A stretch of 64,000 bases of DNA from a phage: sequence record PX969468.1; one strand, 5' to 3'. Numbering within the stretch: the first letter of the stretch is position 1; the number at the start of each line of letters is the position of its first letter. Both the position numbers and the translations under genes were made by a program. A model generated the notes under the pieces. It was not told the DNA's origin, did no database searches, and saw only the letters and a program-made list of their open reading frames with translations. Shown here one piece after another: positions 23,726 to 46,858 of the stretch.

Positions 23726-23743
23726 ACATTAGTGAGGGATATA

Positions 23744-25266: not shown

Positions 25267-26643
25267 ATGCCATATTTAGATAAAGTGGTAGATGTTACAG
25301 TTAACCTCGGAACCCAGCCTATTGACACTGTAGGTTTCGAAACTCCCCTGTTCATCGCTATCCACAACAACTTTACTGAGCGAGCTCGCGTATATGCAGA
25401 GCTGGATCAGATGGTGGAAGATGGTTTCGCACAAGGCTCTGCAGCGTATGAGTTTGCAGCAAAAGCTTTTGGTGGTGTATTCCCTCCACAATACGTTATG
25501 ATCGGTAGACAGGCCAAAGAAAAGACCACTGTAGATTTTAAAGGTATTGCTGCCGCAGCTGATACCGATGTCGTAATGACTATTGCAAAAGGTAGCTACA
25601 ATACCTCTTTGATAGTCCCTATCTCTGGTGGAACAGCTGCAACTCAGATTGCAGAATCAATGAAGACTAAAATCGAAGCAGATGATAACTTGGACGATAT
25701 CACTGTAGAGGCTGCTGATGGTGTTATCACCATCACTGGTGACTGTACTGTTGGTTACCATACTGGTAACTATACAATCAAAAATATCGCCAATGCTGAA
25801 AAACCTTCTACAGTAGTTGATAAGATCAATGCTGAGCGTGACAATTGGTACTTCCTGTGCCATGAAGACCACACCGACATTGAAGCATGTGCTAAGTGGG
25901 CTCAGGCTAACTACAAGCTGCATGTCTACTCTACGGCAGAAGATGTGACTGGTAAAGATAATAACATCGCCACCAAACTGAAAGCTGCACAATATGACAG
26001 TGTCGGCATGTACGATCCTCGCGCAGATAAGGACTTCCCAGAGGGTGGTATCGTAGGCGCTATGGCATCCAACGATCCGTCTTACGGTGACAGCTTGCAT
26101 TTAAAACAGATGCCGGGTGTGATTGCACCATCTATGACTTTAACTCAGCGTATGGCGATTTGGGAAAACCACGTTAACTTCTACAGAATGATTAACGGTG
26201 TTGGTGCTTTCTGGGAAGGCAAGTGTGCTTCAGGTCAGTATGCAGACGCTATTCGTTTTGCACACTGGATCAAGTTCAGATCTGAAGAATCTATGTTTGG
26301 GTACATGCATCGTCGCTCCAACATGGGTTTAAGCATGAAGATGTCTGATGATGATCTTCCGGTTATCAAGTCTGTCCTGATGAACAACCCAATCAACACT
26401 GGCATTAAGAATGGTGCGATCCTGACAGGTTTTGACGAAGACAACAATGTGTTCTACGACCCGATCATCACAGTTCCTAAACGTGCAGAGATTCCAACCA
26501 ATCAGTTGGCTGCTCGTGTTCTGGAAGGTGTGAAAGTAGAACTGGTGTATAACAACGCCCTGCACTTCGTTCGTATCCGGATCAACGTCCTTCTGGACAA
26601 AGTTGGTTCTAAATCCACCAATGCTGTTGCAATGACTGAATAA
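25267..26643 (+). CDS. major tail protein, sheath-like (tentative)
   Basis: 458 codons; first gene of the tail block, followed by a 157-codon tube-sized gene, chaperone pair and tape measure. Confidence 0.4.
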   Translation: MPYLDKVVDVTVNLGTQPIDTVGFETPLFIAIHNNFTERARVYAELDQMVEDGFAQGSAAYEFAAKAFGGVFPPQYVMIGRQAKEKTTVDFKGIAAAADTDVVMTIAKGSYNTSLIVPISGGTAATQIAESMKTKIEADDNLDDITVEAADGVITITGDCTVGYHTGNYTIKNIANAEKPSTVVDKINAERDNWYFLCHEDHTDIEACAKWAQANYKLHVYSTAEDVTGKDNNIATKLKAAQYDSVGMYDPRADKDFPEGGIVGAMASNDPSYGDSLHLKQMPGVIAPSMTLTQRMAIWENHVNFYRMINGVGAFWEGKCASGQYADAIRFAHWIKFRSEESMFGYMHRRSNMGLSMKMSDDDLPVIKSVLMNNPINTGIKNGAILTGFDEDNNVFYDPIITVPKRAEIPTNQLAARVLEGVKVELVYNNALHFVRIRINVLLDKVGSKSTNAVAMTE

Positions 26644-26653
26644 GGAAGACTAG

Positions 26654-27127
26654 ATGGAAACTCAAATTTTAACTCCTTATGCTTATGATCCTAAAAAGGT
26701 CAAACTGTATCTGATGCAGCAGCGTGTCACTGGCTTCGCTGCTGACACCAAGATCGTTGTTTCAAGAAACGAAGACAACATCTACCCTCACGTTGGTGTG
26801 GATGGCGAAATGTCTGCTGCCCTGTCTCGTAACCAATCTGGTGTTATGACTGTATCTTTGCAGAACACTTCTGTATGGAACGCTTACCTTTCTGACTGGC
26901 AGAAACAGGCATCGATTACTGGCCTGGTATTCTTCCCGGTTCTGCTGGAAGGTAGCCAGGGCCCTGGTATTTCCACAATTGGTTGGATCCAGAAACAGCC
27001 TGACCTGACTTACGGAACCGAAGTAGGTCAGCTGGACTGGGATATCGGTATTCTGGATGCATGGCTCAACCGTGATAACATCACTGGTGCTCTTACTGGC
27101 CTCGCAGGTCTTGCAGGTATTATCTAA
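26654..27127 (+). CDS. tail tube-like protein (tentative)
   Basis: 157 codons; position between putative sheath and chaperone genes. Confidence 0.4.
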   Translation: METQILTPYAYDPKKVKLYLMQQRVTGFAADTKIVVSRNEDNIYPHVGVDGEMSAALSRNQSGVMTVSLQNTSVWNAYLSDWQKQASITGLVFFPVLLEGSQGPGISTIGWIQKQPDLTYGTEVGQLDWDIGILDAWLNRDNITGALTGLAGLAGII

Positions 27128-27145
27128 GGGCACACTTTAGCATAA

Positions 27146-27175
27146 GCCTCACCTTCGGGTGGGGCTTTTTGCTTT
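27146..27175 (+). terminator. rho-independent terminator
   Basis: stem GCCTCACC/GGTGGGGC with TTCG loop and TTTTT. Confidence 0.6.
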
Positions 27176-27217
27176 TATGGTTTTGACACACGTTCTTGAA
27201 TTGCTTGAAAGGTTAAA

Positions 27218-27246
27218 TTGACAATGCACCATAATCATGGTAAAAT
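27218..27246 (+). promoter_or_regulatory. sigma70-like promoter TTGACA-17-TAAAAT with TGG extension
   Basis: read directly. Confidence 0.6.
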
Positions 27247-27289
27247 ACACAAATATGGTGCACAACATGACTAATAAGGATGCTATAAA

Positions 27290-27763
27290 ATGGCTATAAA
27301 CTTTAGACCTACAACAGAGATTGATTTAGCAGGGCACAACTTTGTGATCACCCACTGGGGACCGATGAAAGCAATGAAAAACATGCCTAAAATCGGTAAG
27401 ATTGTGGCTGTCCCGCTAGGTGCTATCGGTGGATCTATTATCTCAGGCGGTCAGAACATGGCAGAGGTCCTTCCTACAGCTCTGGCTTACCTGTTCCAAG
27501 AACTTGATGATAACTCTATTGAAGAGCTATTTAAAATCTTGTTCGAAGATATTACCGTAGATGGTGTGGATAAGCTTAACCCGGATGTTGTGTTTGCAGG
27601 GCATCTGCTGGAGATGATTAAGCTGGCAGGTAAGGTTCTGGAGGTTAACTACGGCTGTTTTTTCACACAAGACGGTTTAGGAAGCCTTCTGGAGATGTTA
27701 CAGCAGATGGGTATGATTCAGCAGGTGAACAACCTGGATCAGACTCCGGAAGAGCAGGAATAA
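27290..27763 (+). CDS. tail assembly chaperone (G-like)
   Basis: 157 codons directly upstream of tape measure gene. Confidence 0.5.
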   Translation: MAINFRPTTEIDLAGHNFVITHWGPMKAMKNMPKIGKIVAVPLGAIGGSIISGGQNMAEVLPTALAYLFQELDDNSIEELFKILFEDITVDGVDKLNPDVVFAGHLLEMIKLAGKVLEVNYGCFFTQDGLGSLLEMLQQMGMIQQVNNLDQTPEEQE

Positions 27764-27774
27764 GCAAGGTTGTT

Positions 27775-28023
27775 GTGAGGGCCAGTGAGTGGGCAGCCAA
27801 GAACAGTTCACTCAACTGGTTCGACTTTCTTTGGTGCAGGGTGCTCAAGAATTTCAAAGGGGAAAATTTTGAATCGCTAAATCTTGCAGATATGGCGTAT
27901 TTCCTGAAGCTCTGTGAGTATCTTGATATCGAAGAATTCCTAGATACCGTCCAAAACAGGGAAATGGAGCGGGAGCAGAAGGCTGCCGCAGCTGCTGCGA
28001 AAGCTAAGCGCAGGAGAGGATAA
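27775..28023 (+). CDS. possible chaperone frameshift extension (T-like) or small independent gene
   Basis: ORF in the -1 frame relative to 27290..27763 and open across that gene's stop; no slippery heptamer identified. Confidence 0.3.
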   Translation: MRASEWAAKNSSLNWFDFLWCRVLKNFKGENFESLNLADMAYFLKLCEYLDIEEFLDTVQNREMEREQKAAAAAAKAKRRRG

Positions 28024-28028
28024 TCTAA

Positions 28029-28064
28029 GGGCCGGATTCCTTTTCTGGGATCTGGCCCTTTTTA
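28029..28064 (+). terminator. terminator-like hairpin
   Basis: stem GGGCCGG/CTGGCCC followed by TTTTTATT. Confidence 0.45.
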
Positions 28065-28077
28065 TTATGAGGAAACC

Positions 28078-30411: not shown

Positions 30412-30422
30412 TAAACTGTGTA

Positions 30423-30446
30423 GGGGGCTCTGGCCCCCTTTATTTT
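30423..30446 (+). terminator. rho-independent terminator
   Basis: stem GGGGGC/GCCCCC, 4-nt loop, TTTATTTT. Confidence 0.6.
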
Positions 30447-30453
30447 ATCAGTG

Positions 30454-30482
30454 TTGTAAAAACGGCTATTTTATGATACAAT
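30454..30482 (+). promoter_or_regulatory. sigma70-like promoter TTGTAA-17-TACAAT with TG extension
   Basis: read directly. Confidence 0.45.
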
Positions 30483-30515
30483 ATTTAGATGGTATCGGAG
30501 TGTCCTGGAGAGGTT

Positions 30516-31400
30516 ATGCAAAGTAATATAGTTGATGAAAAAGACCTGTACAAGCCTCAAGAGGTTAAATCTCCAAAGGCTGAAAAGGCAGAGCAGCAAA
30601 CCGAAAGCGATGTAAAGTACACTATGTTTGTCAGCGGTCTTAACTATGGCGGTCGCAACATAGAAATGAAGGGTAAAAACTTTACTAACGATCTTGCCAT
30701 TATCTTCGATCAGGTTGAGAATTACTCTTTCAAACATTCTGTTGATAAGACGGGGTTTGCGGTGGAAGATAAATCTACCCTGTCAGACCACGCTGTAATT
30801 AAAGATGGTGTATTTTCTTTTACCGGTAGGGTAAATACATCTCCACATATAATCTATGAGCAAAACTACATCGATAGGAATACTGACTCTAAAAACCCTG
30901 CAGCATCTATGCGACCAAGTGCTGCACTGGAGGCTTTGACTGAGATCATTAACAAGCGACAGTTGGTTTCTTTGGTTACCGAGGAGAGACTTCTTGAGAA
31001 CTACATCATAACCAGCCTTTCTGCCAGCAAGTCTGTTGGTGAAGGTGCTGCAATGGTTTTTGATGTAGAACTTACAGAGTTCCGCACATTCTACTTGAAC
31101 AAAGTTGTTAATGCAACTGTATACAGCAATCCTAAGAAAGTAGGCAAGACCCAACAAAAAGGTGCTGTCAACGACTGTAAGAATGGTAGTAACGTAGGTA
31201 ACAAGAGGGACACAGGAGCATTCGCAGACACCGCATCCACAAATGCTGCAGAGGAGTGGCAGCCATATAAATCTATGATGTGGACAGATGAAAACGGTGT
31301 TACCCAATCGGCTGCGGATTGGTATTACCAGGAATATGGAAGACCTTCTACCATAGTCCCATCTGAGCAGGGAAACTACGACAAAGTTAACGGGAAATAA
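30516..31400 (+). CDS. hypothetical tail/baseplate protein
   Basis: 294 codons from Met with GGAGAGG RBS; track ORF starts within the promoter. Confidence 0.4.
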   Translation: MQSNIVDEKDLYKPQEVKSPKAEKAEQQTESDVKYTMFVSGLNYGGRNIEMKGKNFTNDLAIIFDQVENYSFKHSVDKTGFAVEDKSTLSDHAVIKDGVFSFTGRVNTSPHIIYEQNYIDRNTDSKNPAASMRPSAALEALTEIINKRQLVSLVTEERLLENYIITSLSASKSVGEGAAMVFDVELTEFRTFYLNKVVNATVYSNPKKVGKTQQKGAVNDCKNGSNVGNKRDTGAFADTASTNAAEEWQPYKSMMWTDENGVTQSAADWYYQEYGRPSTIVPSEQGNYDKVNGK

Positions 31401-31412
31401 GGGGAGCGTATA

Positions 31413-31793
31413 ATGGAGCTTAAAGATTGGTGCATAATCACCTTTGTGTGGGACATTGACGGCTTTCCTGATCAAACCATGCGTGTTGTTTTAGACAATG
31501 AAACGTATGAAATGCGTATGCAATGGAATGAGAGGGATGAGTCCTGGTGGTTATCTCTTGGTCCAGTAGGTGACAGCCCTTTAGTAACCAGAAAAGTAAC
31601 AGCTTGTCAAGATATTTTAGACGGACTGCATTACAGAGATGATTTACCAAAAGGTAGACTGATGGCGCTGTCGTTTAAAGACGATCAATATTGGGGTAGG
31701 GTTGGAAGATATAACCTTGGGGCGAGATCTGAGCTACAGCTTGTATACGGCACCCCGGTTGATCTTTACAAGGAACAGCAAGGGTTAGAATAA
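31413..31793 (+). CDS. hypothetical baseplate protein
   Basis: 126 codons. Confidence 0.4.
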   Translation: MELKDWCIITFVWDIDGFPDQTMRVVLDNETYEMRMQWNERDESWWLSLGPVGDSPLVTRKVTACQDILDGLHYRDDLPKGRLMALSFKDDQYWGRVGRYNLGARSELQLVYGTPVDLYKEQQGLE

Positions 31794-32797
31794 TGGCAGA
31801 GTACAGACGTAGAACATGGCGATTATTGTTTGGTCGTCCGGTAGAGCATGGGGGTAAATCAAAAACCAATATCCCAAAATCTGTTGAAAAGAAAGGGGAT
31901 AGTGATTCCGGAGTTTATGAAGTTAGCTCAGACACTGGTGCTGCCAATATAGAGTTTGACATACAAAAGGACAATACCAAAGAGCCGAACAAAGGTTATG
32001 TGACAGTTTACAACCTGTCTGACGATACAGTTAACTATCTGGATATGCATCAGGCTGATGCCCTTGCAGTTATGTTTGAAGCTGGCTATGATAATGAGAA
32101 CCAGTTGATATTCTCCGGAACTGTGGAGTTTGTTGAAGACAGGTGGGAAGGTCCGACCAGAAAAACTAAGTTCATCTTTGGGGATGGTACTGAGAACATC
32201 ATTAAGTGCCAAAGCACAAGATCTTATCAGAAAGGCACACCTCTGAACTCTGTGCTTAATGACCTACTGAAGGATATGAACTTGCCAAAAGGTAGGGTTG
32301 TGGGTTTTGGAAACCAGACCCTGCAATACTCTATGGCTTTCTCTGGAAACACTGCAGAGAACCTCCGCAGGTTTGCAAGACTGACCAATTCAACATTTAG
32401 CGTTCAGGATGGAGCTTTGTATTGGACCAAGGTTGGAAAAAGGTTCAAAGACTCTGTGTTTGAAATAAGTGCAGAGTCTGGGATGCACGGATCGCCTACC
32501 CCTAAAAACCCAGAACCTGCTAAAAAACGAAAAGCTAAAGCTGCTGCCAAAGGTGGTTCGACATCTAAAAAGAAAAAGAAAAACCCGAGAGAGGATGTTG
32601 GTCTTACTGTAACCACATGCCTTAACGGAGCTATCCTCCCAGAGTCCACTATTTATCTTAAAAGCAAGCAATATACAGGCTTCTATAAGGTGATCACGGT
32701 GCATCATAAGGGCACCATAGAAGGCGGTGATTACACTACAGAGCTTGGCCTTGGGGAAACAGTGGGTGGAGTTGTTGACAAAACTGAGGAGGTATAA
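31793..32797 (+). CDS. baseplate hub-like protein (tentative)
   Basis: 334 codons; located immediately upstream of spike-like and gp25-like genes; Lys-rich internal segment. Confidence 0.3.
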   Translation: MAEYRRRTWRLLFGRPVEHGGKSKTNIPKSVEKKGDSDSGVYEVSSDTGAANIEFDIQKDNTKEPNKGYVTVYNLSDDTVNYLDMHQADALAVMFEAGYDNENQLIFSGTVEFVEDRWEGPTRKTKFIFGDGTENIIKCQSTRSYQKGTPLNSVLNDLLKDMNLPKGRVVGFGNQTLQYSMAFSGNTAENLRRFARLTNSTFSVQDGALYWTKVGKRFKDSVFEISAESGMHGSPTPKNPEPAKKRKAKAAAKGGSTSKKKKKNPREDVGLTVTTCLNGAILPESTIYLKSKQYTGFYKVITVHHKGTIEGGDYTTELGLGETVGGVVDKTEEV

Positions 32798-33474
32798 TGG
32801 CAATAAATAGGAAAGATGCTGCTGTAAGATCCTTTATAGAAAAAATAATGAGGGACTACCACACCAGCATCAGGGCCAGAGTTGTCAGTGTTGACTACAG
32901 TATTCCTTCTGCAGCCGTGCAGCCAATAGCTGAAACCACGTTTGATGACGGAGATGTGGAGAGATACCCTCTTATCTATGACGTTCCAATTCAGGTGATG
33001 TCTGCAAACAGCGGAAAGGCAAGGTTAACACTTCCTATTAAGGCTGGAGATGTTGTAGGATTGCAGTTTTCAGAGAGAAATGAAAACAATAACGACGATC
33101 AACAAACTCACGGCCTGTTTCCAGGGTGGGCAATCACCTCTGTTCATTCAGACTCAAACGCCTTACAGATCGATCCTGATAATGTAGAGTTATGGAATGA
33201 TAGGGTTTATTTTAAACTGACACCTTCTGGCGATTTTGAGCTTCAAACACCTGGTGGGACATTACGGTGCGACAGCAGCGGGGAGTTTTCTTTCACTAAC
33301 GGGGCTGCCAATTTGCGAGCTGCTGTGGATGGGAATATCAGAATGAATGGTGCTACAATAGACCCATCTGGTAGAATTATAACTGCTGCTGGCGTGGATT
33401 TGGATTCATTCTATGCAGAATATAAAGGTCATACCCACTCTTGCCCTGATGGCGAGACAAGTGGACCGCACTAA
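32797..33474 (+). CDS. baseplate central spike protein (gpV/gp45-like)
   Basis: 225 codons; C-terminal tip YKGHTHSCPDGETSGPH (His-x-His ... Pro-x-Gly) reminiscent of metal-binding spike apex of P2 V-type proteins. Confidence 0.45.
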   Translation: MAINRKDAAVRSFIEKIMRDYHTSIRARVVSVDYSIPSAAVQPIAETTFDDGDVERYPLIYDVPIQVMSANSGKARLTLPIKAGDVVGLQFSERNENNNDDQQTHGLFPGWAITSVHSDSNALQIDPDNVELWNDRVYFKLTPSGDFELQTPGGTLRCDSSGEFSFTNGAANLRAAVDGNIRMNGATIDPSGRIITAAGVDLDSFYAEYKGHTHSCPDGETSGPH

Positions 33475-33486
33475 TAGAGGGCTTTC

Positions 33487-34203: not shown

Positions 34204-34212
34204 GGAGAAATC

Positions 34213-34881
34213 ATGGCTGTAGCTTATCCTACAATACCAATTCCAGATCTTGAAGATGCAGAAACAGTCCTGAGTGATGACTTCTTGGTTGTCAACCAGA
34301 CTGATGGGACAAGAAAGGCTAAGATTGACGATGTTGTCAACGATCTTAGCATTACTAAGATAGTCTATTTCACAGATGGTGGCTATCTTAAGAGCAAGAA
34401 GGACTTTGCTTATGACCCAGAGACTAAGCGCTACTACACGTGGAACGGGGATTATCCTAAAATAATCCTCCCAGACTCCACTGTAGAGGGTGCTGGGGGT
34501 GTGTCTGCAAATGCATGGTCTGTTTTTGGTGAGCTTGCTGCAACTTCTTATGGCAGAATAGTTGATTACGGATCTATCGGCGGTCAGCTTGATATGGATC
34601 TTGAAGTTGCGGATACCTTTAAGGTTCGACTAACTTCAAATACCACAATCTCTTTTGAAAATCAAACAGAAGGTCTTGAAGGTGTGGCGAGAACTATAAC
34701 CGTATGCATTACTCAGACCTCTGGCGGCAACAAAGTCTACTGGCCTGATAATGTTAAATGGGCCTACGGAAGAGATCCTATCCTAACATTTACAGCTGGT
34801 GCAACAGATATTTTCAAGTTGGAAACCTACGACAACGGGTTAACTTGGTACGGGGCACTGATCATCGCAGGAGCTATCTAA
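34213..34881 (+). CDS. tail fibre/spike-like protein with conserved N-terminal anchor domain
   Basis: 222 codons; N-terminal ~100 residues align with the N-terminus of the 37516..41316 protein. Confidence 0.45.
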   Translation: MAVAYPTIPIPDLEDAETVLSDDFLVVNQTDGTRKAKIDDVVNDLSITKIVYFTDGGYLKSKKDFAYDPETKRYYTWNGDYPKIILPDSTVEGAGGVSANAWSVFGELAATSYGRIVDYGSIGGQLDMDLEVADTFKVRLTSNTTISFENQTEGLEGVARTITVCITQTSGGNKVYWPDNVKWAYGRDPILTFTAGATDIFKLETYDNGLTWYGALIIAGAI

Positions 34882-34882
34882 G

Positions 34883-37480: not shown

Positions 37481-37515
37481 CATAGGGGGCTGTTTGCCCC
37501 CTTTCAGGAGAAAGA

Positions 37516-40500
37516 ATGGCTGATATTAAAGTTGTCAGAATTGAATCTCTTCCTGCCACTACCGCAGTGACAGAGGATGATTACCTGGTTGTTCAACAAC
37601 CAGACCTGACTCGTCGTGTAAAAATTGGCGATGTTGTCCATGTTGATGGGACTGTTTCTCATGTAATCTCCTTTAAGGAAGGTGGTAAGTTAAACGGCCC
37701 AATGGATTTTGCCTACTTCGAAGAGGAAGACCTCTACCTGCGTTGGAAAGGCGAATTTCCACACACTGTTCCTGCACTGTCTTCACCGTACTCCGATGGT
37801 GGGATTACTGACGCTGCATGGATGGTATATACAGATCCGTCCTTAAGGGAGGAGCTGGAATCTACCATTGGCGCATCTATGATCATGACAGCCGAAGGGC
37901 AGTCTGTCCAGGATGTAATGGATGTTACTGTTCAGACAGCTAACGATGCTAAAGCCCTTGCACAGCGTGTAGATTTTGGTACAGTGCACACTGTAGGCGA
38001 TGTTATTCACCTTGATAACTTTGTTGGCCCTGCAGTTATTGAAGAGGGAAGAACTACCAACTACCCTTCTGTAGCAGCTGGTGAAAAATTTCTGAATGGT
38101 GTGGTATCTCGTCGTGATACTACAACTGTTGATGGTATTTTCCGTGGCGCTACTTCAGGAGCCATGTATACCATTGCAGTAACCAACGGTGTGGCAACAA
38201 CAAAAAGAATAGCACTTCGTGATGAATTTAAACGCCTAGAGGCAAATACCCCAACAAGAACAGTTATCCGTGCTGGAGATGACTTAAACACGGCAGGGTA
38301 CTTGCAGCTTGACGCAACAGGCCGTTGGGGCATGTGGAACCAACAAACAGCCTCGTGGCAACCTCTTGCTATAGAGCAAGGCGGTACAGGTGCCAGGGAT
38401 GCCGCAGGTGCACGCATTAACTTGGGGGCTTTCTATAAGCAACGTGCAGCCCTTGAGCCAAATTTCAATATCAATAACTTGACTGGTAATCAGGATGGTG
38501 TATACTACCAACCGATGACTGCTTATGCAACCGAGGCAAATGGTTACCCTGCAGGTTCTGGTGCTGGTCACTTGATTGTTTGGCAGAACAATGCTAACGG
38601 CGGTACAGGTTGTCGTCAGGAATACTATCCATTCTCTAACGTAGATGTTTGGTATTTGAGAACCTATCAGGCCAACACAAACCAGTGGACTGCATGGCAG
38701 CCGATGGTCAGACCTCGTAACGATGATACCTTTAGATCGCACATCGGTCTTGGGCCTAGAAATACCCCTACCTTCGGGCACCTTTACCTGTCTCAAAGTT
38801 CTGCTGATGTTAAGTCGGCATCAGGTATTGTTAACGGGGACAAATACAGTGCTGACGGTGTCCTTGAGCACGGGTATAGGATCTACTCTGAAGTAAGAAA
38901 CGACAATAAGGCTTGGTTGACAATCCACCTACACAAAGGTGCAAAAGGATCTGAAACTCATAGATATTTGGGTTTCCGCGAAGACGGTGTATTAGACTGC
39001 CCTAAATACATGCAGGTTGGGGATCTTACTGGTCAGCTGACAAACTGGGGACTTGGAGAGTGGATCCGTAGTTCAGGGGCAGAAAGAGGCTTCTGGGGGT
39101 CTAAGAAAGCCGCCAAGATGGTTGTCTGGGATGGTGGGATGGACGAATCCGGTAACGGCACTCTGGAATGGGGTGTTTATAACAACCGGAAGGCCAAGTG
39201 GGAACCTTTACCTCAAGCCGCAGGCGGCACTGGGGCTACAACTTTAGCAGATGCTCAGAATCTGTTCAAAGTTCCTATAGCAGCAGGTGTAAAAGACTTC
39301 TTGACACTGCCAAGAACCGCAGGGATGGAAGATGGGAAATACTACCCAATTATCGTTAGAACAGATCCGTATTACGCCCCTTCGACAGGTACAGATATTA
39401 CCATAGTCACCAGGTCTTCATCTGGAAATGACCCTATGAACTGTGCCACCCTGCAGTGTCACTATAGAACTGGTGGCTGGACGGACAGGGGAGACTCTTT
39501 CTACGGGGTAGTAAATTTCTACCAGAATGAAAAAGCACTTCTTGGGATGGTTGCTCCAACAAGGGGTAAACAAGAGTATGTTGCTTTCTATGTAGAGGCT
39601 CGTGCTTTCCCTGTCAGCATATACGCAAGTAGAAATGTTGTCGAAGTGTTTACCAGAGAGCAAGATTACCAGGTCGGGGCTGTAACAGACAATCAGGATG
39701 GGGTTAAGTTCGTTGCACCTCTTCAGTCAGCAGATTTGAATCTTGCTATTCTTGGAGATAACAACACCAATACCAGACCTATTGTTGACTTCAAAGGTAC
39801 TTCAGGGTTCTACACTGGTGGCGGCACACAGTGGCACTATATAGGCACTGCTGAGCGCTATGCTGTGATGAGCAAAATGAATATGCCAAAAGTCGAGCTA
39901 TGGGCAGACGGCCTTGACTATTTGTGCTACGGCAGTCCTAGAAAGGCGTTATTCTCTAATGCAGGATTCCAGTGTGCATCCGATGGGACAGAGGATCTGA
40001 CTAACGGTACGTTTACCTCTAAATGCGGTAATGGTGCTGGTCTCAAAGGTCAGGCAGAGTTCAGATCTACTCCAGAGGCTGGTCAAGTTATTGTTCGTGA
40101 TGTTGTAGGTTCTGCTCACAGATTCTACAACTTCAACAAAGATGGCACTTTCTCAGCTCCTGGTGGTTTTGTATGCCACACAGGTGCAGACTGGAACAAC
40201 CAGTTCGGGAATAACAACCCTTCTAAAATAATGGCTGGTAACGTCAACGGACCTGAAGGTTCCATGGTTGTAGCAGGGTTGTCGGTTGGTTTTTCTGGAA
40301 ACTACGCTTTCCAGATGGCAGGTCGTTTAGACCAGCTGTACACTCGTTCCATAGAGCAGGGAAACCACAGAGCGTGGAACAAAGTTATTCAGCACCGTGG
40401 TCAAGGGTTGGGAACTAATGACCTTAACGACTACAAAGGAGATAGAGAGGGTTTTTATCATCAGGAGGCCAATGCTCAAGCCGCACTTGATAGAAACTAC

Positions 40501-41316
40501 CCATGCTCTCAGGCAGGTACTCTCCTTGTCTATAGAAACTATGTCAACGTTCCAGAGAGTTGCGTACAGGAATATACAACATATCTTGGAGAAAAATTCC
40601 TGCGTTATGGAACAACGATAGGTGGTGTTTTCACATGGGGCCATTGGCAGCAGCTTGGCGGTAAGGGTATCACTTTAAAAACTCAAGGGTCCAATCTTGA
40701 ACCTGAGTTCACAATACACACAGGTGGTGGTACTGATGTTACCAACACTTCGAACATGCCTTCTAATACAGGCAGGTTGTACTATTGGGGTGATGGCGCT
40801 GATAGGAAGAATGTGTTTGAGTTTCAGATAAGTGATAACTCAACAGCCGCCAGCTGGGTATTCCACTGCGGAGCTAAGGCAGATGAGGCTAAATCAAGAT
40901 ATTTTGCTGTCAACGGCACGGTAGAATGTACCACTGTTAGCCAAAGTTCCGATAGAGACCTGAAGGATAATATAGAGGTCATACCTAACGCTCTGGAAGC
41001 AATTAGAAAGATGAAAGGCTATACCTACACCTTGAAAGAGAATGGTATGCCTTATGCAGGCGTGATTGCTCAAGAGGTTATGGAAGCATTGCCAGAGGCA
41101 GTAGGATCTTTCGTGAAAAGGAAGGAAATAGAAGGTCCTACTCAAGACGGTATTCCTCTGATGACCGAGGAAAGGTTCTATAACGTTGACTACGCAGCTG
41201 TAACAGGCTTGCTTGTCCAGGTTTGCAGGGAACAGGACGATAAAATAACCGCCCTTGAGGAGCAGGTTAAAAAATTGACAGAGGTTGTTACTGGATTGCA
41301 AGAGAAACTGAAGTAA
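37516..41316 (+). CDS. long tail fibre with C-terminal intramolecular chaperone (peptidase S74-like) domain
   Basis: 1266 codons; C-terminal ...SQSSDRDLKDNIEVIPNALEAIRKMKGYTYTLKENG... followed by coiled coil, matching self-cleaving chaperone domains of phage fibres. Confidence 0.6.
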   Translation: MADIKVVRIESLPATTAVTEDDYLVVQQPDLTRRVKIGDVVHVDGTVSHVISFKEGGKLNGPMDFAYFEEEDLYLRWKGEFPHTVPALSSPYSDGGITDAAWMVYTDPSLREELESTIGASMIMTAEGQSVQDVMDVTVQTANDAKALAQRVDFGTVHTVGDVIHLDNFVGPAVIEEGRTTNYPSVAAGEKFLNGVVSRRDTTTVDGIFRGATSGAMYTIAVTNGVATTKRIALRDEFKRLEANTPTRTVIRAGDDLNTAGYLQLDATGRWGMWNQQTASWQPLAIEQGGTGARDAAGARINLGAFYKQRAALEPNFNINNLTGNQDGVYYQPMTAYATEANGYPAGSGAGHLIVWQNNANGGTGCRQEYYPFSNVDVWYLRTYQANTNQWTAWQPMVRPRNDDTFRSHIGLGPRNTPTFGHLYLSQSSADVKSASGIVNGDKYSADGVLEHGYRIYSEVRNDNKAWLTIHLHKGAKGSETHRYLGFREDGVLDCPKYMQVGDLTGQLTNWGLGEWIRSSGAERGFWGSKKAAKMVVWDGGMDESGNGTLEWGVYNNRKAKWEPLPQAAGGTGATTLADAQNLFKVPIAAGVKDFLTLPRTAGMEDGKYYPIIVRTDPYYAPSTGTDITIVTRSSSGNDPMNCATLQCHYRTGGWTDRGDSFYGVVNFYQNEKALLGMVAPTRGKQEYVAFYVEARAFPVSIYASRNVVEVFTREQDYQVGAVTDNQDGVKFVAPLQSADLNLAILGDNNTNTRPIVDFKGTSGFYTGGGTQWHYIGTAERYAVMSKMNMPKVELWADGLDYLCYGSPRKALFSNAGFQCASDGTEDLTNGTFTSKCGNGAGLKGQAEFRSTPEAGQVIVRDVVGSAHRFYNFNKDGTFSAPGGFVCHTGADWNNQFGNNNPSKIMAGNVNGPEGSMVVAGLSVGFSGNYAFQMAGRLDQLYTRSIEQGNHRAWNKVIQHRGQGLGTNDLNDYKGDREGFYHQEANAQAALDRNYPCSQAGTLLVYRNYVNVPESCVQEYTTYLGEKFLRYGTTIGGVFTWGHWQQLGGKGITLKTQGSNLEPEFTIHTGGGTDVTNTSNMPSNTGRLYYWGDGADRKNVFEFQISDNSTAASWVFHCGAKADEAKSRYFAVNGTVECTTVSQSSDRDLKDNIEVIPNALEAIRKMKGYTYTLKENGMPYAGVIAQEVMEALPEAVGSFVKRKEIEGPTQDGIPLMTEERFYNVDYAAVTGLLVQVCREQDDKITALEEQVKKLTEVVTGLQEKLK

Positions 41317-41323
41317 CTGTTCT

Positions 41324-41350
41324 GCCCTCGCTTCGGCGGGGGCTTTTTGT
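41324..41350 (+). terminator. rho-independent terminator
   Basis: stem GCCCTCGC/GCGGGGGC with TTCG loop and TTTTT. Confidence 0.6.
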
Positions 41351-41355
41351 TTGTA

Positions 41356-41384
41356 TTGCGTATTAACTCAAAATCTGGTAAAAT
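41356..41384 (+). promoter_or_regulatory. sigma70-like promoter TTGCGT-17-TAAAAT with TGG extension
   Basis: read directly. Confidence 0.5.
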
Positions 41385-41415
41385 AGCTATCATGATTGTT
41401 TAACCTGGAGGCACA

Positions 41416-42006
41416 ATGTTTTTATGGGAAAGGCCTAGATACCTTCCAGATATTAGATTGGAGCTGCTGGCAGATATTGTTACGTTTAAAAGTCCGTTTA
41501 CAGGTAAAACGCAAAAAGTGACCTATGCCACACCTAACTGGAAAGGCACTTTGACGGTTTCCAATATCAGCGAGTCACAGCTGCTAGAGCTTAAGAGCTT
41601 TGTTGATCAGGTGTATAAAGATGGGAACATTTTTCTTATTAAAACGTACGGTCACTCAGTAACAGCTAATGAGCCAATCGCCCTTGGGCCTACTGGTAAC
41701 GACGATTTTTTGAAGACGGTCGGATGGGAGCCAAACAGAGACATAGCCAGAGCTGGGGATAAAATATCTGTCAATGATGAATTGAAAGTGGTAACAGCTC
41801 CAGTGCGCAGCGATGGTGTTGGGTCTGCTGTCATAAGCATATCCCCAAGACTTAGAAAACCTATTGCCGCAGGGGACACTATGAAGATAATAACTCAATC
41901 CCCAAAGGGTAGGTTTCATATCAGAGATATTTATAAAATTAAGCAAAAAGTCGATGCTATGCAAAAAGGTGATAATATAGTTATCAACTTCTTTGAGGAT
42001 TTCTAA
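41416..42006 (+). CDS. tail tip/baseplate assembly protein (tentative)
   Basis: 196 codons; GGAGG RBS; first of three small genes preceding the J-like gene. Confidence 0.35.
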   Translation: MFLWERPRYLPDIRLELLADIVTFKSPFTGKTQKVTYATPNWKGTLTVSNISESQLLELKSFVDQVYKDGNIFLIKTYGHSVTANEPIALGPTGNDDFLKTVGWEPNRDIARAGDKISVNDELKVVTAPVRSDGVGSAVISISPRLRKPIAAGDTMKIITQSPKGRFHIRDIYKIKQKVDAMQKGDNIVINFFEDF

Positions 42007-42007
42007 G

Positions 42008-42559
42008 ATGATTAGAGCGCCATTAGATAATTTATTTCTTGAAAAGCTGGAGCTTGATAGTGTTGAGATCTTAATTGCTGCAAAGCTAGAGCTACCAACA
42101 GGTACTGTCAGGGTGTGCTCAGGAACTGGTGTTGTGGTGATTGAGGGGCAACATTTTATAGGGATAGGTGGATCAGCAACATTGACCGCTGTGTCTGAGA
42201 AAGATGCCACCAACTTCGGGTCTGTGGTAGCAACATTGAACGGGTTTGATCCAAAGTATGTAGGTGATCTGCTGAAGACGGAGTATTCGGGTTGTCGTGC
42301 CACGTTGTATATCACAGCTATGGAGAATGGTTTACCTGTTACAACCAATGGCTTGTTTGACGGCCTTATAACAGACATGGCTATTCAGACAGGGGAGAAT
42401 AGTGCTTTGTCCATATCCATATCTTCCATCTTCAACAGCTGGTTAAGAGGTTTTCCTTATCGGTACACAGAGGAGAGCCATAGCTCAAGAAACGATAATG
42501 ACAGATTTTTTAAATATGTGGATCAGGTGGCAAGCCGCCCGATCATTTGGGAGGTTTAA
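42008..42559 (+). CDS. tail tip/baseplate assembly protein (tentative)
   Basis: 183 codons from ATG just after upstream stop. Confidence 0.35.
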   Translation: MIRAPLDNLFLEKLELDSVEILIAAKLELPTGTVRVCSGTGVVVIEGQHFIGIGGSATLTAVSEKDATNFGSVVATLNGFDPKYVGDLLKTEYSGCRATLYITAMENGLPVTTNGLFDGLITDMAIQTGENSALSISISSIFNSWLRGFPYRYTEESHSSRNDNDRFFKYVDQVASRPIIWEV

Positions 42560-42984
42560 TGAGCACACACCCTCGTTTAGTGGACTGGCAAGAAAGATTG
42601 TGGAAAGTGTTTGACGAAGAAGCCACCGTCCCGTTTGAATGGGGATTCCACGATTGCTGCACTTTTGCGGCTAAGTGTGTTGATGCCCAATACGGAACAG
42701 ATTTTCTTTCTAACTTTGAAGGAACGTATAAAACAGAGTTGGAAAGCAAGAGATGGTGCATGCTTCGTTTCAAAACCACACATCTGCCTACTATTTTTGA
42801 TCTCTTTTTGACTCGATTGGATACTCCTAAACAGGTTCAGCGTGGTGATATTGTTATTTTCGAAGGTCTGAACGGGCTCACCGCTGGTGTGTTCTGGAAC
42901 AACCAGATTTGGGCGAAAGGTGATAAAGGGATCTTTATGTTCGACATGAAAGATTCTATCGTTGTTGATGTCTGGAGGTATTAA
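42559..42984 (+). CDS. tail assembly protein with Cys-containing FHDCCTF motif (tentative)
   Basis: 141 codons from Met with GGAGG RBS; motif WGFHDCCTFAAKC; position immediately before J-like gene. Confidence 0.35.
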   Translation: MSTHPRLVDWQERLWKVFDEEATVPFEWGFHDCCTFAAKCVDAQYGTDFLSNFEGTYKTELESKRWCMLRFKTTHLPTIFDLFLTRLDTPKQVQRGDIVIFEGLNGLTAGVFWNNQIWAKGDKGIFMFDMKDSIVVDVWRY

Positions 42985-45900
42985 TGCCAATTGCAATGAT
43001 TGATAACATCGTTGCTTCTGCAAGATCTTCGAGCTATGACTGGAACGCATCCAAGGCAGCTCTGGCTGACAGCCTGAACACTGTTACCACCAGAACCCTT
43101 GATAAGATTTTCGAAGGCAACAAATCTTACAGAAGTCAACAAGATAGACAAAAACTTCTCAGATCTTCTGCTGCACCTTGCTCTGTAGTATATGGGAAGA
43201 CACGTACATCTGGATTGCTTGCGTTTTTAGAGCAGGACAGGGACAGAACCCTTCATTGTGCTATTGTTCTTGCCAATCATCCCTTGGAAGGTATAGAAGA
43301 TATACTTATCGACGGTAATCCTATTTCCTCGTATGGGGATTTGGTATCGTGGGAGTTGCATAACGACAGGAAAACCTCTGATCCTTTCATGGGCACACAC
43401 TGCCCTTCGTGGTCACCAGACATGATAGGTAGAGGGATCAGTTGGCTACGTGCCAGCTTTAAGTTTGACCCTAACAAGTTTCCTTTTGGGTTGCCAAACG
43501 TTACACTTGTCAAGGTTGGTAAAAAATGTTATGATCCTCGTATCAGTAAAGAGGTGTATACCAACAACGCTGCCTTGGTGATTCTGGACTATCTAAGAAC
43601 GTACCTTAAATGTCCTGACGAAACCATCAACTGGGAGTCCTTCAAGGAAGCTGCCAACATATGCGACGAGGCTGTAAAAAACGCGGACGGAACCAGTGAG
43701 CGCCGTTACACCATTAATGGTGAGTTCGACATGGACGAAGCACCAGCAAGTATTATGGCAGAAATGCTGAAGGCTTGTGGTGCAGATCTTAGCTATGTAG
43801 CTGGCAAATACGGTCTGCTGGTAGGTGCATACTATGGCCCGGCAACAATGACACTGAGTGAGGACTGTGTTTGCGGTGAGGTTAAGATCTATCCTGAAGC
43901 CTCCTTCGACAAAAGATCAAACACAATAACTGGGAGATTCACCAGTCCAACCAAAGGGTATTCTGAAACAGACTTCCCATCGGTGTTCGTACCTGAATGG
44001 GTAGAGAAGGACGGAGAAAGAAAGATAATTGATATAGATTATCGTTTTGTTACCAGTCCTTATCAGGCTCAGCGTGTTTCCGCAATATTCTTAAGACGTG
44101 CCAGAGCTGGCAGGATTATTGAAGTAACCTGCAATATGCGGGGTTTTAAATTTAAGCCTGGGCGTTACGTTACGATGGACCTCCCAAGTATTGGTATAGT
44201 GGGCCAAGAAATGAGGGTTCTTGAATGGGAGTTCACCAAAAAGGGCGGTGTCAAGGTAAAACTCCGTCAAGATGCTAAAGAGTGGAATGATGCCACAGGG
44301 CAACTTCCGGATTCTGGAGATGTGGATATTCCGATATCCCCGTCCGGTGTAGCTCAACCGCAAAACTTCAGATACTCTGTTCTTCAAGCTGGGGAAGTAA
44401 CTCATGGTGTTTTGGCTTGGGACAACGTTGGAACTTATGCTCAAAATATTGTGCAGGTAAGAAAGAACGGAGAGATTATTTGGACAGCGCAAACAGTCGA
44501 GCAGTTTGTCCGCGTAGAAGGATTGACCAAAGGGTCATATACAGCAACCGTGGTTGCAACATCTTATAAGGGTGGTGTATCTCCAGAAGCCTACTGCGAG
44601 TTCAACATTCAAGCACCTGAAGCTCCTGTTTCTGTAGAAGTTAAGCAGGGATACTTTGCTATCACCTTGATTCCGCACAGCAGGGACTTAGCAAGTGTAA
44701 GCACCCAGTATGATTTTTGGACATCTGGTATGACAAGGTTGCCTGACACAAGTGATGCAACCGTTACTTCAAAAGCCACCCGTATGGGTGTTGGTTCAAC
44801 TTGGACATCTGAAGGTCTGCAGAACGATAAGATTTATTATTGGTATATTCGAACCACAAACGCTTTTGGTAGTTCTCAGTTTGTAGAATGCGCTGCACGC
44901 TGCTACACCTCTATTGAAGATTTGATGCCTCAGATAGATGCTGAATTTAAAAAGACAGAAACTTATAAAGAGTTGATGAGCACTTTAGATTCCTCTATCG
45001 AGGAGGTTGAAAATCGTGTCATAGAGCTTAACAAGTACATGGACGGAAGGGTAGATGAGGCATTCCAACAACTTGGAGATAGGATAGGTGCGGTAGTTAC
45101 AGAGACAACTCAGAAGTTTGAGGATGTCAATGGAAATATCACAGCTCTGGATAGGAAACTTGTTGCTGCACAGAACAAGTTCACCAACGATCTGAACACT
45201 GAAAGTGGAAGACTGGCATCCCTGATCGAGACAACCAATAAAGCAACCACTGATCTTCTGAACAAAAAGACAGAGGCTTTAGACGAGAAATTGGTTGCAG
45301 CCAAAGGGGAGTTGGTAGAACAAATAAGTGGTGTGGAGAGCGGATACCTTGCCGGAGATAAAACTCTAGATGGCAAGATCAATACCCAGAGAACGGAACT
45401 TGATGCAAGCATCTTAAGCACCAACCAGGCGACAGTGGATCTTCTCAACAGGACATCTGAAACTCTGGATCAAAAGATCAGTCAGACAAACGCGACGGTA
45501 TCTAAGAACTATACCACCCTTGATGGTAAGATAACTACCGCAAAAACTGATCTCAATACCTTGATTGCCAATACCAACAAGGCCACCACAGATTTGTTGA
45601 ATCAGAAAACCTCTGCACTGTCGGAGCAGATAACTTCTGCACGTGGGGAAATTTCTACCAACAAACAGGCGATTAAGGATTTAGATGGGAAGCTGACCTC
45701 CACAAAAACAGCACTGGACGCTACAATCTCCGATACCAACAAAGCAACCGTGGATCTTATTAACGGCACAGCGTCAGCTATTCGTCAAGAACTTGCTGTT
45801 GCTAAGCAGGAGATCATTGATGATGTCGGTGATGTGTCAGAGCTTAGAGCTGCAGTAGCTACAACATCTAAGGCTGTGACAGACTTAGAGGGCAAAGTAA

Positions 45901-46823
45901 ATGCTCAATGGGGCACAAAAATACAGGTAGACTCCGCAGGGAATAAGTATGTGGCAGGTATCCAGTTAGGCATGGAAGGCTCTGGAGGCCAAGTTCAGTC
46001 ATATTTCATGGTTAGCGCAAACAACTTTGCGGTATACAACCCAGGCAATGGAACAGCAACCCTTGCTTTCGCAATCAAGAACAACCAAGCGTTCTTGAAA
46101 GACGCTTTTATAGAGAACGGCACGATCTCTTCTGCCAAGATCGCGCAAGAAATTTCGTCAAACAACTACGATGGCAATGGGTACCACAAATACGGTTGGT
46201 ATATTAACAAGAACGGGCACGCCCAGTTTATGGATGTGTGGGTGAAAGGTAACATCAACGCTAGTGCAGGTAACTTCACAGGGGCAGTTAACGCTACCAG
46301 TGGCACCTTCCGTGGAGATGTTTATGCCAACAATGGTAGCTTTAGAGGAACCATAGATGCAACAGGAGGTACATTCCGTGGACGTGTAGAAGCTTCCGTT
46401 ATCCGTGCTAACCAGTTCGAAGGTGCGATTGTTGCACACAGGACTTACGGAGATTGTGCTCCAGTATACAACTCCCAGCAAAGGGTTTGCCGTTGGAGGT
46501 GGAGATATGTAGATAACGTTTCAGGTCAGGGTAAGAACGTAACATTCTTCTTTAAACTGAATGGTACTCTTGCCAGCTCCCAGCTTAACGTTTGGATAGC
46601 CGGACATCAAATCCTTGCAGGCAAGAAGTACGGAAACGACAACAACGGCATGTGTGCGGTAGGGATAACAGGTCTTGGTGAACAAACTATAGACATTATC
46701 GTCGAGATTTACACACCATGGTCAACGTCAAGTGTGACAGGGGTTACAATATCTTGTCCAACCGTAATAGTTAGTCGTTCAAACTCTAGCCTCCAGGGAC
46801 CTTGGAACGAGTCTCATGACTAA
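42984..46823 (+). CDS. lambda J-like tail tip / host-specificity protein with internal tandem repeat region
   Basis: 1279 codons; segments QAPEAPVSVEVKQGYFAITLIPH and YVAGIQLGMEGSGGQVQSYFMVSANNFAVYNPGNG resemble conserved blocks of lambda J as recalled; central ~240-residue region of imperfect repeats (TNKATTDLLN...). Confidence 0.6.
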   Translation: MPIAMIDNIVASARSSSYDWNASKAALADSLNTVTTRTLDKIFEGNKSYRSQQDRQKLLRSSAAPCSVVYGKTRTSGLLAFLEQDRDRTLHCAIVLANHPLEGIEDILIDGNPISSYGDLVSWELHNDRKTSDPFMGTHCPSWSPDMIGRGISWLRASFKFDPNKFPFGLPNVTLVKVGKKCYDPRISKEVYTNNAALVILDYLRTYLKCPDETINWESFKEAANICDEAVKNADGTSERRYTINGEFDMDEAPASIMAEMLKACGADLSYVAGKYGLLVGAYYGPATMTLSEDCVCGEVKIYPEASFDKRSNTITGRFTSPTKGYSETDFPSVFVPEWVEKDGERKIIDIDYRFVTSPYQAQRVSAIFLRRARAGRIIEVTCNMRGFKFKPGRYVTMDLPSIGIVGQEMRVLEWEFTKKGGVKVKLRQDAKEWNDATGQLPDSGDVDIPISPSGVAQPQNFRYSVLQAGEVTHGVLAWDNVGTYAQNIVQVRKNGEIIWTAQTVEQFVRVEGLTKGSYTATVVATSYKGGVSPEAYCEFNIQAPEAPVSVEVKQGYFAITLIPHSRDLASVSTQYDFWTSGMTRLPDTSDATVTSKATRMGVGSTWTSEGLQNDKIYYWYIRTTNAFGSSQFVECAARCYTSIEDLMPQIDAEFKKTETYKELMSTLDSSIEEVENRVIELNKYMDGRVDEAFQQLGDRIGAVVTETTQKFEDVNGNITALDRKLVAAQNKFTNDLNTESGRLASLIETTNKATTDLLNKKTEALDEKLVAAKGELVEQISGVESGYLAGDKTLDGKINTQRTELDASILSTNQATVDLLNRTSETLDQKISQTNATVSKNYTTLDGKITTAKTDLNTLIANTNKATTDLLNQKTSALSEQITSARGEISTNKQAIKDLDGKLTSTKTALDATISDTNKATVDLINGTASAIRQELAVAKQEIIDDVGDVSELRAAVATTSKAVTDLEGKVNAQWGTKIQVDSAGNKYVAGIQLGMEGSGGQVQSYFMVSANNFAVYNPGNGTATLAFAIKNNQAFLKDAFIENGTISSAKIAQEISSNNYDGNGYHKYGWYINKNGHAQFMDVWVKGNINASAGNFTGAVNATSGTFRGDVYANNGSFRGTIDATGGTFRGRVEASVIRANQFEGAIVAHRTYGDCAPVYNSQQRVCRWRWRYVDNVSGQGKNVTFFFKLNGTLASSQLNVWIAGHQILAGKKYGNDNNGMCAVGITGLGEQTIDIIVEIYTPWSTSSVTGVTISCPTVIVSRSNSSLQGPWNESHD

Positions 46824-46830
46824 CAGTAAA

Positions 46831-46858
46831 GCCCCGCTTCGGCGGGGTTTATTTTTAT
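46831..46858 (+). terminator. rho-independent terminator
   Basis: stem CCCCGC/GCGGGG with TTCG loop then TTTATTTTTAT. Confidence 0.65.

Follow-up and report, generated by a model that had tools for sequence, protein, structure and literature searches.

A four-gene cassette in the tail operon of a Vequintavirus

The stretch of DNA analysed here (sequence record PX969468.1; hereafter the window, 64,000 nucleotides (nt) in length) carries, between nt 25,267 and 46,823, a tail gene region for which an initial annotation, made from the letters of the sequence, had proposed that contractile-type baseplate genes are combined with a protein resembling phage lambda J. In a GenBank nucleotide search this 21.6-kb region retrieved 113 records with at least 80% query cover, and it is 94–97% identical at the DNA level to more than 100 GenBank Vequintavirus genomes, including rV5 derivatives, slur16, FV3 and BASEL phages. 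Vequintaviruses are contractile-tailed coliphages with genomes of ~136 kb, and the region can be assigned, on these alignments, to the tail and baseplate operon of a member of this genus, that is of an rV5-like E. coli myophage. Every gene discussed here lies on the + strand, in a densely packed arrangement (Table 1). Eighteen GenBank records of the MG0656xx series, titled "Campylobacter phage" and with Campylobacter jejuni given as host, are also ~96% identical to the region; several of them are without annotation, and the host labels look doubtful.

The J-like open reading frame (ORF) of 1279 codons, located as the initial annotation had stated about 9 kb downstream of the baseplate block, is the last of four genes that form a cassette (nt 41416–46823). 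At the start codons used by relatives, the boundaries between these genes abut or overlap by one base. The three genes ahead of the J-like one code for small proteins of 196, 188 and 145 amino acids (aa), here referred to as the Dit-like, L-like and DUF6950 proteins.

The sequence blocks quoted in support of a resemblance to lambda J do align with the lambda protein (chain 8iyk_J): GYFAITLIPH with GYFQITATPH, YVAGIQLGMEG with YVAGIGLSMED and FMVSANNFAVYNPGNG with FLVAANRIAFIDPANG, within a whole-protein match that is far beyond chance (E 4.6e-28). Among Pfam families, PF09327 (131.5 bits) and PF24489 (105.8 bits) were above their gathering cut-offs and PF24421 (24.1 bits) was under its cut-off of 29, while PF13550 reached E 0.097 on the protein itself and is recorded on many homologues of 40–50% identity. 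A profile built from the first 500 residues and 25 homologues matched residues 266–852 of T5 pb3 (E 7e-37) and residues 147–481 of lambda J, besides the Ig/FN3 region; taken with the whole-protein alignments, this shows collinearity of the J-like protein with lambda J residues ~147–990, hub included. No alignment with lambda J was obtained before residue ~147 or beyond ~990, the receptor-binding C-terminus included, and the NCBIfam model lambda_TipJ scored 148.5 bits against a cut-off of 1950. By these comparisons the protein is a relative of the J family and not an equivalent of full-length lambda J. The kinship claimed in the initial annotation stood; what it had understated is that a cassette of four genes is involved and that hub domains are present besides the fibre domains. 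The J-like nature of this type of protein is already known from the literature and from GenBank: the same 1279-aa protein, rV5 gp37, appeared in a 2013 paper under the name "tail fibre protein (host-specificity)", with COG4733 and PF13550 assigned to it (PMC3606486), and both "central tail fiber J" and "tip attachment protein J" are in use among GenBank relatives.

Approximate domain limits of the J-like protein are ~48–480 for the hub, 493–652 for the Ig/FN3 domains, ~660–956 for a coiled coil and 957–1097 for a tail-tip domain, followed by a C-terminal region to residue 1279. Among the relatives compared, the closest over the full length was the J protein of the Nonagvirus JenK1, with 48% identity over residues 48–787 and 37% over 889–1270, a collinearity reaching almost to the C-terminus. 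The coiled coil (nt 44961–45851) contains four degenerate repeats of 51–62 aa, marked by the motif TN[KQ]AT[TV]DL[LI]N at residues 751, 813, 864 and 918; this repetition is seen at the protein level only, Tandem Repeats Finder having detected no DNA repeat in the coiled-coil region. The J gene itself varies in length across Vequintavirus genomes (about 3600, 3840 or 4146 nt), and the coiled-coil segment is not alignable between Vequintavirus lineages, so that the length of the encoded fibre appears to be polymorphic in the genus. A J-related protein of 771 aa was also met in two Salmonella enterica chromosomes (L002 and L003, positions 10001–12316), with ~50% identity to residues 138–499 of the window protein. 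It lies beside genes for an integrase, a DUF6453 protein, a tail-fibre C-terminal domain and a Tox-PLDMTX toxin domain, with no tape measure or other tail genes nearby, and the locus looks like a prophage remnant.

Regarding the small proteins, a word-indexed homologue search returned near-identical Vequintavirus copies only, single-sequence searches of solved structures with all three gave nothing significant, and neither Pfam (E up to 10) nor NCBIfam held a family for the 196- and 188-aa proteins. For the 188-aa protein, an exhaustive HMMER search was used and retrieved 638 representative relatives, most of them 180–200 aa long. The profile of this family matched residues 14–179 of T5 pb3 (E 1.2e-7), which is the part of pb3 left uncovered by the J-like protein. 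An AlphaFold model computed from 64 sequences (predicted local distance difference test, pLDDT, 88.9) retrieved with Foldseek T5 pb3 (template modelling (TM) score 0.61; 7zqp_b, E 1e-6) and lambda gpL (8iyk_L, TM 0.58, E 1e-4), as well as tip or baseplate chains of GTA, T1, Chi and JBD30, 6tba_7A and 9l9p_J among them. The second cassette protein is thus predicted, from this model, to have the fold of a gpL-like N-terminal hub domain. Since the L-like and J-like proteins together cover pb3, the hub is split between them, in the way that lambda divides it over gpL and gpJ. In a few of the representative relatives (proteins P0163, P0172, P0174, P0247 and P0268), of 320–490 aa, a gpL-like domain makes up the C-terminal part, and the PHROG profile of the gpL-like family has 390 positions, near the sum of 196 and 188 aa; the first two cassette genes may be fused in some phages.

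The 196-aa protein is a putative distal tail protein, a label which derives from the name of its PHROG family and from the position of its relatives after the tape measure. The DUF6950 gene occupies the position that gene K has in lambda. Alignment of eight homologues of its product identified invariant D-C-C and R-G-D residues and no invariant histidine; in some records the protein bears the putative label "cell wall hydrolase". Automatic annotation has given the genes next to J, here and there, the names "distal tail protein" or "tail tip assembly protein".

Table 1. Genes and borders of the tail region, with window positions (E, E-value; percentages, amino acid identity)
Feature	Position	Strand	Basis of assignment
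Tail sheath, 458 aa	25267..26643	+	phrog_205 "tail sheath", E 3e-117; labelled tail sheath in phage WalterGehring
Tail tube, 157 aa	26654..27127	+	phrog_280, E 2.4e-41; PF11681; tail tube in GenBank relatives
Tail assembly chaperone	27290..27763	+	PF21822 Phage_TAC_15; phrog_3840
82-aa ORF after chaperone	27775..28023	+	matches unknown-function families only
Tape measure, 777 aa	28078..30411	+	phrog_5255 (E 0); PF20155 TMP_3
Tube initiator, 303 aa (first Dit-type protein)	30489..31400	+	PF21821 Dit_like, E 4e-22; 31% to phi92 gp135
Baseplate plug, 126 aa	31413..31793	+	PF22479 Pam3_gp18 plug; 40% to phi92 gp136
Central hub, gp27-like, 334 aa (first hub of the phage)	31793..32797	+	phrog_196 "baseplate hub", E 2.5e-83; 38.6% to phi92 gp137
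Central spike, 225 aa, C-terminal HxH tip ...GHTHSCPDGETSGPH	32797..33474	+	PF18352; 27% to phi92 spike
Sheath initiator, gp25/W-like, 238 aa	33487..34203	+	phrog_120; phrog_4233; 25% to phi92 gp139
Fibre/adaptor gene, 222 aa (Tail_spike_N), first of three in variable slot	34213..41316 (all three)	+	
Fibre gene, 865 aa (phi92 gp141 homologue), second of three	34213..41316 (all three)	+	tblastn of phi92 gp141
Fibre gene, 1266 aa (Tail_spike_N and Peptidase_S74 chaperone), third of three	34213..41316 (all three)	+	
Upstream border: terminator-like hairpin	41324..41343	+	top-ranked terminator-like site
Upstream border: promoter-like motif CAAAATCTGGTAAAATA	41369..41385	+	
Cassette gene 1, putative distal tail protein (Dit-like), 196 aa; rV5 gp40	41416..42006	+	phrog_1302 "distal tail protein", E 2e-50
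Cassette gene 2, gpL-like, 188 aa, TTG at 41993 (relatives: ATG at 42008, 183 aa); rV5 gp39	41993..42559	+	phrog_2048 "tail protein"
Cassette gene 3, DUF6950, 145 aa, TTG at 42547 (relatives: ATG at 42559, 141 aa); rV5 gp38	42547..42984	+	PF22262, E 6e-34
Cassette gene 4, J-like, 1279 aa; rV5 gp37	42984..46823	+	lambda J, E 4.6e-28; PF09327, PF24489, PF24421
Downstream border: terminator-like hairpin	46829..46850	+	
Downstream border: promoter-like TTGACT-17-TAAAAT containing CAAAATTTGGTAAAATA	46879..46895	+	
Wedge protein, 496 aa (Baseplate_J)	46928..48418	+	PF04865; phrog_6; 32% to phi92 gp145
Second wedge protein, 228 aa	48430..49116	+	30% to phi92 gp146

Siphovirus counterparts of the cassette and its distribution

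The same four genes, in the same order, were found directly after the tape measure in seven siphovirus loci, namely a metagenomic contig (L004), JenK1, Yersinia phage PY54, Serratia phage Tlacuache, Providencia phage PSTCR4, Vibrio K45 and Pseudomonas phage psageB2. In the metagenomic contig the tail genes run from a tail terminator through an Ig-domain tube protein, a chaperone and the tape measure to proteins of 196, 194 and 138 aa (the last one a DUF6950 protein) and J, with no sheath gene between terminator and tube; identity with the window proteins is 31%, 39% and 46% for the three small ones in turn and 58% for the J N-terminus. Over the three loci compared (this contig, JenK1 and PY54), identity with the window cassette was 29–58% at the amino acid level. 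The correspondence with the Queuovirinae (JenK1 gp17–gp20; Seuratvirus) and with PY54 (ORF17, 18, 20 and 22) extends to the tight spacing of the genes, with identities of 31–37% for the Dit-like protein, 29–40% for the L-like protein, 45–46% for DUF6950 and 44–58% for the J N-terminus. On the basis of gene order and homology, the cassette is the tail-tip module of siphoviruses of the Queuovirinae and PY54 types. What differs is its setting: in these siphoviruses the module follows the tape measure immediately and provides the only tip of a sheath-less tail, whereas in the window it lies 11 kb downstream of the tape measure, after three fibre genes and inside an operon having a hub of its own. 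The window module also has a longer coiled coil and an unusually divergent Dit-like protein. Dit-like proteins of the siphoviruses are 50–52% identical to each other and so match their J N-termini in conservation (47–52%), whereas between Vequintavirus and the siphoviruses the Dit-like protein falls well behind J (31–37% against 44–58%). This divergence suggests a change of partner, in a comparison of four genomes only.

Compared with the tip of lambda (gpM, gpL, gpK, gpI and gpJ; 8iyk), the window J-like protein aligns with gpJ at ~147–481 (hub), 614–845 (Ig/FN3) and 844–990 (central fibre), and in lambda the hub is likewise divided between a small and a large protein. On the other hand, the window has no counterpart of J residues 1–146 or of the LamB-binding C-terminal domain, it carries ~280 additional coiled-coil residues between the Ig domains and the tail-tip domain, it has no gpI gene, and its third gene codes for a DUF6950 protein instead of one with MPN and NlpC/P60 domains. 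The L-like protein is moreover shorter than gpL (188 vs 232 aa) and has two cysteines only, which may or may not correspond to the iron-sulfur ligands reported for gpL. In T5 (PDB 7zhj, 7zqp and 8hqz) the L-like protein and the J-like N-terminus correspond to the two above-mentioned parts of one hub protein, pb3; this is a single axial chain in a tail of non-contractile type, followed by the separate pb4 and pb5, whereas the split hub of the window is fused to its own fibre.

To define its distribution, the 188-aa protein and the J N-terminus were run by tblastn against 50,697 phage genomes. Matches of at least 95% identity came from about 117 records, all of them Vequintavirus; below these there was a gap, down to identities of 58% or less, and all the weaker records listed from a spread sample have genomes of 30–85 kb. 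The weaker matches inspected showed tail gene orders of siphovirus type or belonged to the Queuovirinae. In the collection searched, the cassette was not found in contractile phages other than Vequintavirus. A possible second myovirus host, vB_VibM_83AMN, was rejected, being a 58-kb member of the Queuovirinae.

The position occupied by the cassette, between the genes for the sheath initiator and the wedge, is filled differently in related myoviruses. Mydovirus KpS8, whose wedge protein is 60% identical to that of the window, has other genes and no cassette there; phi92 has other genes in the slot as well, and none of the tail, baseplate and fibre-region proteins of phi92 that were tested matches nt 41416–46823; in Septuagintavirus W70 the genes for sheath initiator and wedge are numbered consecutively, with no cassette in the slot. 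The slot is therefore a variable fibre locus, of which the cassette is the genus-specific occupant. In the literature consulted in full text we found no account that treats the four genes as a single siphovirus tip module acquired by capture, and no discussion of a phage encoding two sets of hub and Dit proteins.

The contractile baseplate, selection and the borders of the cassette

The genes that had been taken as hallmarks of a contractile tail were confirmed, each at the stated place. The sheath-sized and tube-sized genes do code for sheath and tube, and the tape measure was likewise recovered by profile searches, which also supported the gp25-like, spike and J-like assignments; the spike is 27% identical to that of phi92 (PHI92_gene_138, E 3e-25), with the HxH motifs aligned, and the gp25/W-like protein matches phi92 gp139 and, through a 100% identical protein in a Vequintavirus contig (L015, from GCA_034689965.1), the Sheath_initiator family PF10934. 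As for the proposed pair of tail assembly chaperones, the first ORF was confirmed by its Pfam family, and the 82-aa ORF is a putative partner by its position. All ten baseplate and tail parts were identified by PHROG or Pfam and are of the phi92 or simple-myovirus type, and all but sheath, tube and tape measure were also matched pairwise to phi92 parts present in a cryo-electron microscopy (cryo-EM) map (PMC13450770). In that study, of 2026, gp135 is the tube initiator, gp139 the sheath initiator, and gp145 and gp146 are components of the wedge heterotrimer (PMC13450770). Because tube initiator, plug, hub and wedge pair are all homologous to proteins of the phi92 model, the contractile baseplate is complete on its own. 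The proposal of a mosaic of modules was therefore well founded, a full contractile baseplate being combined with a protein of the lambda J/T5 pb3 lineage and the two sets having different relatives.

The core baseplate proteins are the same as in the "Swiss army knife" baseplate of phi92 (PMC13450770), and several fibre sets are present there as in the Vequintavirinae fibre locus (PMC8594841). When gp140 and gp141 of phi92 were run by tblastn against the window, both had homologues, as have gp142 and gp147. No homologue of any cassette gene was found among the tail, baseplate and fibre proteins of phi92 tested, and the as yet unassigned fibre II of phi92 is not explicable by the cassette. The homologue of gp142 (42% identity) is a 690-aa fibre protein encoded at nt 49116–51188, with N-terminal and TIM-barrel domains of the "non-contractile tail sheath protein" families PF23844 and PF23845. 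Two papers tie its family to the N4 receptor-binding protein gp65 and to the ECA/NGR glycan receptor; it represents a second borrowed adsorption part, common to a podovirus.

A contig ~75% identical to the window throughout at the DNA level (L014) has the cassette at the same site. In this comparison, where synonymous sites are saturated, identity was 85% for the Dit-like, 87% for the L-like and 80% for the J-like protein, compared with 81–93% for the neighbouring baseplate and fibre proteins; the DUF6950 protein, at 57%, is the fastest-evolving of the cassette. Where synonymous divergence was measurable, the ratio of non-synonymous to synonymous substitution (dN/dS) was 0.03–0.2, the value of 0.2 pertaining to the DUF6950 protein, and more than 110 genomes carry the four ORFs in intact form. 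As judged from these substitution patterns, the cassette genes are functional and under purifying selection. In the L015 contig, otherwise 93% identical to the window, a tract of ~74% identity corresponds to nt 40502–45745 and includes the end of the upstream fibre gene, the three small genes and J to about residue 920; the tract matches the L014 lineage, and the distal J domains stay with the backbone. A swap of the cassette between strains as a unit was considered for this contig and rejected in favour of ordinary recombination with an L014-like lineage.

Of the terminator-like hairpins in the 16.5 kb scanned, the two strongest flank the cassette, and a promoter-like site comes after each. 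Within the 64 kb, both the hairpin core CGCTTCGGCGGGG and the 17-nt motif CAAAATNTGGTAAAATA have exactly two copies, one at each border of the cassette, and the shorter TGGTAAAATA, with which the promoter-like element ends, occurs four times, always intergenic and on the + strand, against 0.13 occurrences expected. Further terminator- or promoter-like sites were detected at nt 27147–27247, where one follows the tube gene, and at nt 23717–23726, while KpS8 has a single unit of this kind, before its wedge gene, which aligns with both cassette borders. Such borders indicate that the cassette is expressed as a unit of its own, from a promoter-like motif of the phage's own type. A reading of the flanking repeat as an insertion scar was downgraded, as the same type of unit after the tube gene and before the KpS8 wedge gene indicates normal punctuation of a late operon; the repeat could be a late promoter consensus or, in part, a junction duplicated when the cassette entered.

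Proposed role of the cassette in the virion

Taken together, we favour, with a probability of roughly 60%, the reading that a siphovirus tip complex was captured and is reused as an accessory fibre on the myovirus baseplate. An ancestor of the genus would have captured the module whole and provided it with a late promoter of the kind that the phage itself uses. Assembly would proceed as in a siphovirus, with a trimer of J, a hub completed by the L-like protein, help from the DUF6950 protein and a Dit-like ring on top. Neither tube nor DNA would pass through this assembly, which would instead be the socket of an extra fibre on the periphery of the baseplate, and the Dit-like protein, having no tail tube to face, would have been refitted as the attachment face. 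The fibre might be ~70 nm long, a rough estimate from domain lengths, and its distal J-like part would bind a host surface structure and add to the host range.

As for virions, rV5 gp37 was detected in them by mass spectrometry (PMC3606486). Several points weigh against the captured-tip reading, starting from the thinness of this very evidence, which consists of 4 peptides and 5 spectra, with one clearly good tryptic peptide, and from the absence of rV5 gp38–gp40 from the 19 proteins detected (PMC3606486). None of the four cassette proteins has been placed in the virion by structure or micrograph: in a cryo-EM report on two Vequintaviruses, three of nine annotated fibres were resolved and none was assigned to the J-like protein (PMC12143355). 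For the 196-aa protein, the family profile gave a non-significant E of 0.37 to a T5-like Dit among solved structures, and the AlphaFold model, from a shallow alignment, was unusable (pLDDT 45.7); for the DUF6950 protein, single-sequence and profile searches found no similarity to lambda K or to any solved structure. The sample of four genomes behind the divergence of the Dit-like protein belongs here too. Finally, genetic screens in K-12 explain infection by the ECA/NGR glycan and the lipopolysaccharide (LPS) core and offer no receptor for this fibre (PMC8594841, PMC7229145, 10.64898/2026.04.02.716166); any receptor of the J fibre would thus be dispensable or redundant on K-12.

In a stronger form of the captured-tip reading, which we advance only tentatively, virions would carry complete tip complexes as accessory organelles, made up of a Dit-like ring, the split hub and the J fibre, and one phage would build two different hub and Dit assemblies. 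The tip might then have kept a receptor-triggered conformational change that signals to the wedge rather than opening a channel for DNA, and it might account for the density which, in the cryo-EM report, was left unassigned on the C-terminal head of the TC8-class fibre (PMC12143355).

The main competing explanation, which we regard as unlikely, is that the virion contains the J-like protein alone, in the form of a conventional trimeric side fibre attached by its N-terminus, with the small proteins acting as assembly factors that are discarded, like gpK of lambda. In that case the particle would have a fibre of J descent but nothing resembling a tip complex. This explanation agrees with gp37 being the only cassette product seen in rV5 virions, with the names "tail assembly protein" or "tail tip assembly protein" given to the small genes in some GenBank records, and with the fast evolution of the DUF6950 protein (57%, dN/dS 0.2), which fits a chaperone better than a structural part. 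However, the chains that the L-like model resembles (gpL, the N-terminal portion of pb3, and those of GTA, T1 and Chi) are all built into solved siphovirus tips and not discarded, and the conservation of the Dit-like and L-like proteins (85–87%) is on a par with that of baseplate proteins. The rV5 mass spectrometry, moreover, was too shallow for small, low-copy proteins, the 19 proteins including a sheath represented by 15 spectra, and copy numbers are not readable from such counts (PMC3606486).

That the cassette forms instead a single central fibre, with the Dit-like ring on the axis under the wedge ring and the J cone round the spike, to be shed or opened on contraction, so that the myovirus would bear a central tail fibre in the manner of a siphovirus, seems to us quite improbable. 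Dit hexamers and J trimers are axial in every solved tail (PDB 8iyk, 7zqp), gp37 gave only about half as many spectra as gp41, a protein of similar size, and "central tail fiber J" is the name issued by GenBank pipelines. Nevertheless, the axis is already filled by a full set of tube initiator, hub and spike, and a separately encoded axial hub and spike argue against an axial position of the J-like protein. The exposed iron-binding tip of a phi92-type spike suggests direct contact with the membrane, and the spectral counts are too few for copy number. The text consulted of the Vequintavirus cryo-EM report describes three fibres in the proximal region of the baseplate, with a central fibre not mentioned there, and its one remark on the J-like protein is that the N-terminus resembles central tail fibres (PMC12143355). 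Hardly credible, lastly, is a decaying or selfish passenger that contributes nothing to the particle. The cassette has no phenotype linked to it so far and, like a moron, is bordered by terminators of its own, but the four ORFs are intact in the more than 110 genomes mentioned and have kept their site in a lineage whose synonymous divergence is saturated, with dN/dS of 0.03–0.2, the promoter-like motif is of a type native to the phage, neighbouring genes abut or share a single base, and gp37 peptides are found in virions.

Vequintaviruses are among the most often isolated and therapeutically used coliphages. Their gene-to-fibre assignment is not yet settled (PMC8594841, PMC12143355). The captured-tip reading would give a concrete model for fitting the unassigned cryo-EM density, and it predicts that gp39 and gp40 are parts of the virion. 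It would also be an unusually clear case in which a whole multi-protein tail organelle, and not a mere fibre tip, has moved between non-contractile and contractile phages, which raises the question what purpose a hub and a Dit ring serve when neither tube nor DNA passes through them. For host-range engineering, the cassette would be a natural unit. At the end of the same fibre locus lies an ORF of 1875 aa (nt 56381–62008), the counterpart of rV5 gp27 (1878 aa), and both the coding strand and the GC skew of the window switch near 62 kb and near 9–10 kb.

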